Source of the DNA: an uncultured Gammaproteobacteria bacterium
GTDB lineage: Bacteria > Patescibacteriota > Microgenomatia > UBA8517
Assembly (NCBI GenBank): GCA_964608405.1
Contig: CAZSNC010000001.1
Location: forward strand, 18,667 to 82,666
Length of the DNA: 64,000 nt
Reading direction: 5' to 3'
Position numbers and translations under genes: made by a program. Under the pieces are notes generated by a model. It saw nothing but the letters and a program-made list of their open reading frames with translations, had not been told where the DNA came from and did no database searches. This document shows, one piece after another, positions 56,523 through 57,596 of the stretch (position 1 is the first letter of the stretch; every line of letters starts with the position of its first letter).

Positions 56523-57596
56523 TTATCTGGGCAGATATTCTTTAATGTTTTGGGGGGTAAGATCAAATCTTTGACCTTTTCCTTCAACCATCAATCTGGC
56601 AATTTTTCTGACCACTCCTTTGATTGTGCGCTCCAAGGTTCTTGTCCCTGCATCAAATCCTAAAGGTCTTACAATCTGAGGCCAAACCTCTTCAGAAATG
56701 TTTATACCCCCCTCCGGAATTCCGGAATCTTTTAGAATTTTGGGGAACATGTAATCGCGTCCGATTGTTATTTTTTCCTTGTCCGAATATGACGGCATTG
56801 TAATCGGTTCAAGCCTATCTAAAACGGCCGTTGCGATATGATTGGTATTGTTGGCAGTTGCGACGAATAAAACCTCCGAAAGGTCAAACGGGTAATCCAC
56901 ATAGTGGTCAGTGTATGCATGGTTTTGTTCCGGATCCAAAAGTTCGACTAGTACTCCCATAATTGATGCCCGTCCAGTATCGGTTACTCTGTCAACTTCA
57001 TCCAAAAGAATTACGGGGTTTTTGGCGTTTGCAGTTTTTACTGCTTTTATCACTTTTCCCGGTTCCGCCTCTGCCTGGACTCTCGATTGACCCCTTAAGT
57101 CAAGAGGACTCTCCATTCCTCCGAAGGGAATTCTTACAAATTTTCTTCCCAAAGCTTCAGCAATAGATATAGCAATCGTTGTTTTACCAGTTCCAACTAA
57201 ACCAACGAAACAAAGTGCTGGTGCCCTTTTAATTCCTTCCGTATCGCCCCTTTCCTGCTTAAGTTTCATTATCGATATGTACTCCAAAATTCTGTCTTTG
57301 ATGTCGTCCAGTCCGAAATGATTTTTATCGAGTATCTGCCTGGCATGAACCAAATCTAAATTGTCCTGTGTACGGTTATACCAAGGAAGAGTAACTATCC
57401 ACTCCACATATTTTGAGATACGATCCAATTCCGGTAAGAAAGAGGCGGACGATACAAGGTTTTTCAACTGATCCAACCGGAGCAAAACATTCTTTTTCAA
57501 TTCATCAGGAATTTTAACACCTTCAAGTTTGTCTACTAAAAGTTTTATCTGTTCCTCTGAAGACTCTGTTGTTGCCATACACAATAATATTACCAC
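56523..57596 (-). CDS. Lon-like AAA+ ATPase module (no LAN N-domain, no S16 protease domain)
   Basis: 357 aa. Aligns with the Lon segment from the pre-AAA helix (…[38 protein letters not shown]…) through Walker A [9 protein letters not shown] and Walker B [9 protein letters not shown] to the sensor-2/alpha domain. Ends exactly where the Lon protease domain would begin, and the next gene is UDG. Confidence 0.7.
   Translation of the reverse strand: [357 protein letters not shown]

Follow-up and report, generated by a model that had tools for sequence, protein, structure and literature searches.

The window examined here, a 64,000-nucleotide stretch of contig CAZSNC010000001.1 (assembly GCA_964608405.1, forward-strand positions 18,667 to 82,666), carries on its minus strand a gene that we call lon', the name we use for a stand-alone LonA-derived ATPase gene. 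We conclude that lon' encodes a functional ATPase that has kept the three-helix bundle (NTD3H), the AAA+ alpha/beta subdomain, and the Lon lid of LonA, and that its LAN/NTD5H and S16 protease domains were lost in an ancestor of a large part of the Patescibacteria. The product most likely serves as a non-proteolytic, ATP-driven protein remodeler or chaperone, a reading to which we give about an even chance of being correct.

The window's open reading frame (ORF) listing includes a frame with a GTG start and 357 aa at 56523..57596 on the minus strand, and a first-pass annotation, made from the DNA letters alone, had taken this 357-aa translation as the protein. The ORF is present, but because homologues are 347 to 353 aa long and begin at the equivalent of MATTE, we infer that the true start is the ATG at 57578, six codons inside the GTG frame, which gives a product of 351 aa. 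The lon' coding sequence would then occupy 56523..57578 (minus strand), an assignment that agrees with the homologues, the domain matches, and a structural model. Its TAA stop (56523-56525) is followed by a 4-nt gap and then by the ATG (56518) of a UDG-family gene, and since this start lies only 4 nt past the stop, no downstream frame can hold a protease domain. Reading the DNA across the 3' end and searching with tblastn both support the earlier statement that a UDG gene, and not a split protease gene, comes next; similarly, no LAN-encoding ORF lies upstream, where the neighbor is pnp and tblastn with LonA N domains found nothing. A frameshift joining lon' to a protease ORF, the event named at that time as a possible refutation, was looked for in the 3'-end DNA and by tblastn with Lon protease and N domains, in the window and in all of the lon' loci described below, and neither a frameshift nor a split gene was found.

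The only Pfam domains in the lon' product are AAA (PF00004, 5e-18) and Lon_lid (PF22667, 3.5e-8), and neither LON_substr_bdg/LAN (PF02190) nor Lon_C (PF05362) gave a match. Among the NCBIfam models, TIGR00763 ('lon') covers the protein over model positions 249-568 of 795 only, with 327 bits against a cut-off of 608, NF008053 yields 234 bits against a cut-off of 891, and no model is dedicated to the lon' family. The best PDB match found by phmmer was B. subtilis Lon 3m6a (E = 9e-78, query residues 14-355), and the Lon proteins of E. coli and Y. pestis align over about residues 249-579, corresponding to the NTD3H, the AAA+ alpha/beta subdomain, and the lid. Identity between lon' and LonA is 35-43% over about 335 residues. 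Pfam, TIGR00763, and the PDB alignments thus agree with the original description of a Lon-derived AAA+ protein devoid of LAN and S16 protease domains, and the end of the alignment at about 579 places its C terminus where the protease domain normally begins. The accompanying statement that similarity to Lon starts at the helix before the ATPase was correct as to the missing LAN domain, but the whole three-helix NTD3H is kept.

This bundle (residues 1-64; 57387..57578, minus strand) aligns to LonA 245-300, with modeled helices at residues 2-19, 25-39, and 47-63. LonA residues Y294, W297, Y456, and E458 take part in contacts between the NTD3H and the pre-sensor-1 hairpin (PMC7239648); the first two are kept as Y57 and W60, and Y226 and D228 correspond to Y456 and E458, so that the pre-sensor-1 hairpin contacts are retained. 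Column statistics, which throughout compare 90 lon' with 46 LonA sequences, revealed a clade-specific 3-residue insertion preceding an aromatic-rich NTD3H loop (F47-L48-P49-E50). An AlphaFold2 (AF2) monomer model, for which 38 family sequences were aligned, served to assign the fold and not to judge pore geometry, and its top Foldseek matches in the PDB were all LonA or LONP1 chains (TM of about 0.65-0.75 over about 340 residues). The longer members of the clade (P0139, P0126, P0166, and P0156) carry extensions without Pfam domains; these tails are low-complexity and rich in Q, P, S, and N, and the idea that they are degenerate LAN or S16 remnants was rejected.

The ATP-hydrolysis site of lon' is predicted to be complete, with the full set of HCLR-clade AAA+ motifs. 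Walker A (GLVGTGKTT, G126-T134; 57177..57203, minus strand), whose LonA equivalent is GPPGVGKTS, has G126, G129, G131, K132, and T133 invariant in the clade, and its second position discriminates between the two groups, with L127 in 89% of lon' and proline in 96% of LonA (GL[VAQ]G versus GPPG). Walker B (ILLDEVD, I190-D196; 56991..57011, minus strand) supplies the invariant catalytic residues D193 and E194. The segment from sensor-1 N243 to the Arg finger R255, which includes the end of the pre-sensor-1 hairpin region, lies at 56814..56852 (minus strand), and N243, D254, and R255 are present in 100% of both lon' and LonA. The Lon-type lid, or small alpha subdomain (56577..56732, minus strand), carries the invariant sensor-2 R313; its signature reads P-L-G-[FY]-D-A-G-I-R in lon' and x-Y-T-R-E-A-G-V-R in LonA, with discriminating positions 306, 307, and 309. 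K132, T133, D193, E194, N243, R255, and R313 are all invariant in lon' and LonA alike, and the Walker motifs quoted in the first-pass annotation are present as given, as is the sensor-2 arginine (DAGTRTLER).

The pore loops, on the other hand, have been rebuilt. In LonA, the Y398/I399 pincer (Y. pestis numbering) grips the substrate and is needed for translocation (Shin et al., PMC7239648). Pore loop 1 of lon' (R162-K175; 57054..57095, minus strand) corresponds to the LonA sequence RGHRRTY[VI]GA[LM]PGR, but Y398, a tyrosine in 100% of the 46 LonA, is replaced by Q168 at a position that varies within the lon' clade (F 18%, H 16%, S 16%, Q 8%), and I399 (V/I/L in LonA) is replaced by A169 (P or A in the clade). 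The neighboring columns have changed as well: G400 is now E170 (D or E in the clade), M402 (L/M in LonA) is E172 (E in 96% of lon'), and H394-R395 is Q164-S165 (Q-S in the clade). The window protein has therefore exchanged the Tyr-Ile pincer for Q168-A169 and gained the acidic residues E170 and E172. Within pore loop 2 (R197-G208; 56955..56990, minus strand; K-x-G-x-D-[FY]-R-G-D-P-[SA]-[SA] in LonA), the LonA motif [FY]RGDP has become A-R-A-[DS]-I-M in the clade and GRASI in the window protein. The aromatic at position 202 is gone (A 54%), the proline of 98% of LonA at position 206 is isoleucine in 78% of lon', and position 207 is methionine in 98%. An exhaustive search of 1.84 billion representative sequences showed that matches terminating at the lid all carry an x-[PD]-[DE]-A-E-P-G pore loop, whereas nearly all single-module full-length LonA carry RGHRRTY[VI]GA[LM]PG. 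The first-pass annotation had proposed examining whether the translocation motifs are intact, and they are not; because the pincer residues have been replaced, lon' combines an intact ATPase motor with gripping residues that are not canonical.

Conservation of this architecture is broad. Among 5.8 billion clustered proteins, we found more than 120 clusters at 66-96% identity, all of 347-353 aa and with only the Pfam domains AAA and Lon_lid. They are named Woesebacteria or Patescibacteria, and in GenBank and IMG they are often mislabeled 'Lon protease' or 'ATP-dependent Lon protease'. A scan of GTDB species representatives returned 80 loci, 74 of which encode proteins of 339-472 aa that end just past the lid; the other six, full-length LonA of Desulfuromonadales, provided a positive control for detecting N and protease domains. 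The lineages with lon' comprise Woese-, Shapiro-, Ames-, Levy-, Gottesman-, Roizman-, and Daviesbacteria, Dojkabacteria, and metagenome-assembled genomes (MAGs) labeled Nomura- or Saccharibacteria. For the two closest relatives whose DNA was compared, the ratio of nonsynonymous to synonymous substitution (dN/dS) is 0.016-0.021 (pN 0.027, pS 0.67), with dS near saturation, and lon' is under strong purifying selection. In a neighbor-joining tree, the 90 lon' and the 46 LonA modules fall on opposite sides of one bipartition (internal branch 0.19). The phylogeny against LonA that had been suggested earlier thus places lon' in one clan apart from every LonA sampled, and the clade is old and widely inherited within the Patescibacteria. 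The proposal that the gene might be the remnant of a domain loss in a reduced genome does not fit, given that a gene with dN/dS of about 0.02, present in 74 GTDB genomes and forming one clan, is not decaying.

Two observations concern the records in which lon' is found. One MAG (SRP329715_co1_384; loci L062 and L069) has lon' twice, with the copies belonging to different subclades; the first is divergent to groESL and the second follows pnp, which could be either true paralogy or a mixed bin. In addition, L012, L014, L016, and about 30 other GTDB lon' loci come from TPA-assembled MAGs titled 'uncultured Gammaproteobacteria', 'Pseudomonadales', or 'Methanoperedens'. Given their Patescibacteria-type synteny, these titles are evidently wrong taxonomic labels.

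With no protease domain of its own, lon' could be the unfoldase half of a split protease and feed substrates to a peptidase that it docks onto and that is encoded elsewhere, be it ClpP, HslV, a stand-alone S16 domain, or some other. We regard this as unlikely, though it deserves to be weighed first among the alternatives. In its favor are the intact ATPase site, the frequency of two-component AAA+ proteases (ClpXP and HslUV, for example), the aromatic that some members keep at the pore-loop tyrosine position, and the reach of the peptidase search, which was confined to the lon' loci and the window. That search used tblastn with Lon protease domains, which found no S16 match in the 64-kb window, and extended to S16, LAN, ClpP, and HslV homologues, of which there were none in about 1.3 Mb of Patescibacteria DNA (±10 kb around the 74 lon' loci) plus the window, although the same search for peptidases and N domains detected all six LonA control loci. 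The queries were ClpP, HslV, and E. coli Lon sequences, and the P and N domains of four database LonA gave the same result. The split-protease reading is further weakened by the loss of the Tyr-Ile pincer and of the pore loop 2 aromatic here and in most members, by a C terminus that is unconserved beyond close relatives (LPQ/R, LV, DTV, or low-complexity tails), which speaks against a conserved docking tail, and by the gap-free alignment to LonA, in which no IGF-like loop insertion is visible.

Canonical LonA was met in the Patescibacteria only once, in Ca. Falkowbacteria (P0189/P0291), as a protein of 822 aa with a canonical pore loop. Beyond its own 91% cluster mate, its best matches have at most 45% identity, and those with names are Desulfobacterota at about 44%. 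The gene was likely acquired horizontally. Its contig (L095/L096, GCA_001780275.1) resembles those of the candidate phyla radiation (CPR), and the gene sits among accessory genes. Canonical LonA, which looks sporadic, does not appear to be a broadly inherited Patescibacteria gene, unlike lon', and our results suggest that organisms like the source of the window have no Lon protease. A separate arrangement of Lon-type modules was seen in many database proteins of 900-1700 aa (P0121-P0138, P0128, and P0145), in which two or three tandem AAA+ modules are followed by a single Lon_C domain. P0121, for example, has AAA at 295-433 and 652-788 and Lon_C at 874-1073, and some of these tandem-module proteins have at least one module with degenerate pore loops or Walker B.

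How might a Lon core work without a protease? By analogy with LonA, lon' would form an AAA+ ring and spend ATP on binding and remodeling client proteins without degrading them. It may thus act in the proteostasis network as a chaperone-like holdase or remodeler and not as a processive threading unfoldase, with E170 and E172 of the acidic pore loop, together with the aromatic-rich loop of the NTD3H, contacting clients in place of the Tyr-Ile pincer. A precedent for such a non-proteolytic remodeler is the anti-aggregation activity of LONP1, for which Walker A and B are required and the protease serine is dispensable (PMC8368198). The position of lon' beside chaperonin genes in part of the family gives a modest hint at a proteostasis role: in eight GTDB genomes that form one sub-lineage, and in P0272, lon' is divergent to groES-groEL, and in Dojkabacteria groESL lies 3-5 kb downstream of lon' with an FtsA/PilM-like gene in between.

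Several points count against lon' being a remodeler or chaperone of this kind. In LonA it is largely the protease and N-terminal domains that hold the ring together, and both are missing in lon'. In some members of the clade the pore-loop tyrosine position still has F or Y, so threading may yet occur in the family, and a peptidase partner, sought in about 1.3 Mb around the lon' genes plus the window, may be encoded elsewhere in the genome. The adjacency to groESL is limited to one sub-lineage and Dojkabacteria, and no CIRCE operator was found upstream of lon' or in the groES-lon' intergenic regions. The AF2 model has moderate confidence, with a mean pLDDT of 70 and values below 50 for pore loop residues 164-172. 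Finally, a 2026 preprint describes LonP1's chaperone-like activity as N-domain-mediated and ATPase-independent, and lon' has no N domain.

In the eight groES-lon' intergenic regions (L035, L043, L047, L049, L052, L053, L062, and L064), TTGTCAAG(T/G)G recurs near the lon' start, and AACTTATAA lies near groES. These motifs may represent a lineage-specific promoter or operator.

The gene order on the minus strand of the window is nusA, infB, a gene for a 325-aa protein, rpsO, pnp, lon', udg, rnj, ftsK, and an HTH_25 gene. The upstream neighbor, pnp (57645..59948, minus strand; identified by Pfam), adjoins lon' in most Microgenomates loci and encodes a PNPase that ends in about 70 aa of Arg/Gly-rich tail. 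The downstream neighbor is a 212-aa UDG-superfamily glycosylase (55880..56518, minus strand; Pfam UDG, 1.9e-31) that is found in about one-third of related loci. In a consensus scan, just one strong match to a sigma-70-like promoter came up in this region, and it lies upstream of rpsO (60330..60358, minus strand), while no terminator-like site separates pnp, lon', udg, and rnj on that strand; on this weak evidence, lon' is probably, or at least plausibly, co-transcribed in this genome with rpsO, pnp, udg, and rnj. The order rpsO-pnp-lon'-(udg)-rnj-ftsK occurs in most of the 74 loci, and the order rpsO-pnp…rnj-ftsK is conserved across the sampled Patescibacteria.

Such neighbors invite the view that lon' acts on nucleic-acid machinery, either as a remodeler of PNPase/RNase J RNA decay whose acidic pore works on the PNPase tail or, as the first-pass annotation had suggested, as a DNA-binding ATPase, a view that we consider quite unlikely. 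It draws on the pnp-lon'-(udg)-rnj order of most Microgenomates loci with its possible co-transcription, on the basic disordered PNPase tail of 30-100 aa in these lineages together with the acidic lon' pore loop, and on the ability of Lon to bind DNA (PDB 6n2i is titled 'DNA-binding ATP-dependent protease La'). However, the conserved rpsO-pnp…rnj-ftsK order also includes infB and nusA, so adjacency says little, and because nearly all genes in the window are co-directional and tightly packed, the pnp/rnj neighborhood is weak evidence of function. UDG is missing from about two-thirds of the loci, its adjacency to lon' is incidental, and one clade has lon' at groESL, away from pnp and rnj. E. coli Lon reportedly binds DNA through R306, K308, K310, and K311, which align with R69, Q71, N73, and L74 of lon', so that only one of these four residues is still basic; the net charge of the module is negative, with a clade mean of -4.2. 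The nucleic-acid-related context proposed in the first-pass annotation is thus not borne out, with UDG present in about one-third of loci, a gene order that is conserved in its own right, and one sub-lineage located at groES-groEL.

Further features of this region were noted in passing. The disordered Arg/Gly-rich tail of the window PNPase follows its S1 domain (…GRGGNGGHEERRSGGYSGGGGYRKSFNRSDRRGGRFSRG…), and tails of 14-106 aa with R+G of up to 65% are found in nearly all Microgenomates loci examined (within L012-L080). The 325-aa protein between infB and rpsO (60390-61367, minus strand) has no Pfam match and recurs in the same place in most Microgenomates loci at 23-43% identity; in other bacteria, rbfA and truB are usual between infB and rpsO.

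Highly unlikely, in our view, is that lon' serves another cellular machine, for instance that of division or of the pilus, as a non-remodeling ATP switch or an assembly factor, or that it regulates FtsH. Directly downstream of lon' in Dojkabacteria, and likewise at the P0161 locus, is an FtsA/PilM-like gene, and ftsK is nearby in most loci, but the former association is confined to a few lineages, ftsK belongs to the same conserved gene order, and lon' has no specific interaction domain. Lastly, the chance that lon' is a pseudogene or a truncated piece of lon, or that a frameshift or assembly artifact produced it, is negligible, since only its unusual length relative to LonA of 770-840 aa favors this, whereas the same boundaries recur in hundreds of independent assemblies, dN/dS is about 0.02, the catalytic residues are invariant, and the stop codon abuts the next gene, and these selection data exclude a pseudogenized duplicate even if a full-length Lon were present elsewhere.

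Elsewhere in the window, a protein of 767 aa that weakly matches Baseplate_J-like (4.9e-7) is encoded at 46825-49128 (minus strand), directly downstream of a short alanyl-tRNA synthetase of 607 aa that ends at its tRNA_SAD domain (49129-50952, minus strand). The pair recurs in L001 and L003. The stretches 739-3628 and 9744-13192 (minus strand) hold type IV pilus-like genes, among them those for a PilB-type T2SSE ATPase and a PilC-type T2SSF protein and, next to recA, those for two large T4SS_pilin-domain proteins of 323 and 637 aa. Such pilus gene content is typical of Patescibacteria.

Compared with known systems, lon' is closest to LonA (endopeptidase La; MEROPS S16.001; TIGR00763; structures 3m6a, 4ypl/7fd4 of M. 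taiwanensis, and 6on2 of Y. pestis). Both have the NTD3H, an HCLR-type AAA+ module with a pre-sensor-1 hairpin, the Lon lid, and all ATPase motifs. Unlike LonA, lon' has neither LAN/NTD5H nor the S16 Ser-Lys protease domain, its pore loops 1 and 2, Walker A, and lid signature are altered, and it forms a separate clan in the tree and scores below the family cut-off. Nearly identical domain content is seen in the E. coli Lon fragment 235-584 (PDB 6n2i), where lon' 16-355 aligns to chain residues 10-339, and a parallel in function is offered by protease-dead LONP1 S855A, which keeps an ATPase-dependent anti-aggregation activity (PMC8368198). These are, however, laboratory constructs or mutants with canonical pore loops, whereas lon' is natural, is under selection, and has altered pore loops. 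LonC of M. taiwanensis (MEROPS S16.007) is likewise a natural Lon derivative that lacks one activity (PMC9569914), but it is the mirror image of lon', having kept its protease with a dead ATPase, while lon' has a complete ATPase site and no protease.

Assignment of lon' to other Lon types was considered and rejected. LonC is excluded by the intact ATPase motifs and the missing S16 domain of lon', and LonB by the missing protease domain and the lack of a membrane-anchoring insertion (the alignment to LonA between Walker A and Walker B is gap-free); LonBA was rejected as well. BrxL and the Lon-like defense ATPases share a distant Lon-like ancestry with lon', but PADLOC gave no BrxL match, only weak generic AAA matches (best IetA, 1.7e-5 over 59 residues), and a BrxL-like role was also rejected because of the housekeeping gene context and vertical inheritance of lon'. 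ClpX and HslU are, like lon', single-ring HCLR AAA+ proteins without a covalent peptidase. They keep aromatic GYVG pore loops and peptidase-docking elements, whereas lon' has no recognizable docking element and no nearby peptidase gene. Current Lon classifications describe all Lons as having both ATPase and protease domains (PMC9569914), and full-text literature searches found no description of a protease-less Lon in CPR/Patescibacteria.

The lon' family can be regarded as a natural separation-of-function Lon, conserved across a major branch of ultra-small bacteria. The 'Lon protease' labels that it carries may lead metabolic and proteostasis reconstructions of Patescibacteria to credit these organisms wrongly with a Lon protease. 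The physiological relevance of a proteolysis-independent chaperone activity of Lon, and the domain responsible for it, are still debated, and the family offers a clean natural system for learning what the Lon AAA+ core does alone and for testing how far an HCLR motor can alter its pore loops and stay useful. We also suggest, tentatively and as something that may well prove wrong, that in Microgenomates, Dojkabacteria, and their relatives lon' is the only vertically inherited descendant of Lon, with a pore lined by carboxylates. If so, the chaperone activity of Lon would have been split naturally from proteolysis by way of non-canonical substrate engagement, with clients that are possibly basic, for example ribosomal proteins or tails rich in Arg and Gly, as in the neighboring PNPase, and the Lon function that survived extreme genome reduction would be the ATP-dependent, non-degradative handling of clients.

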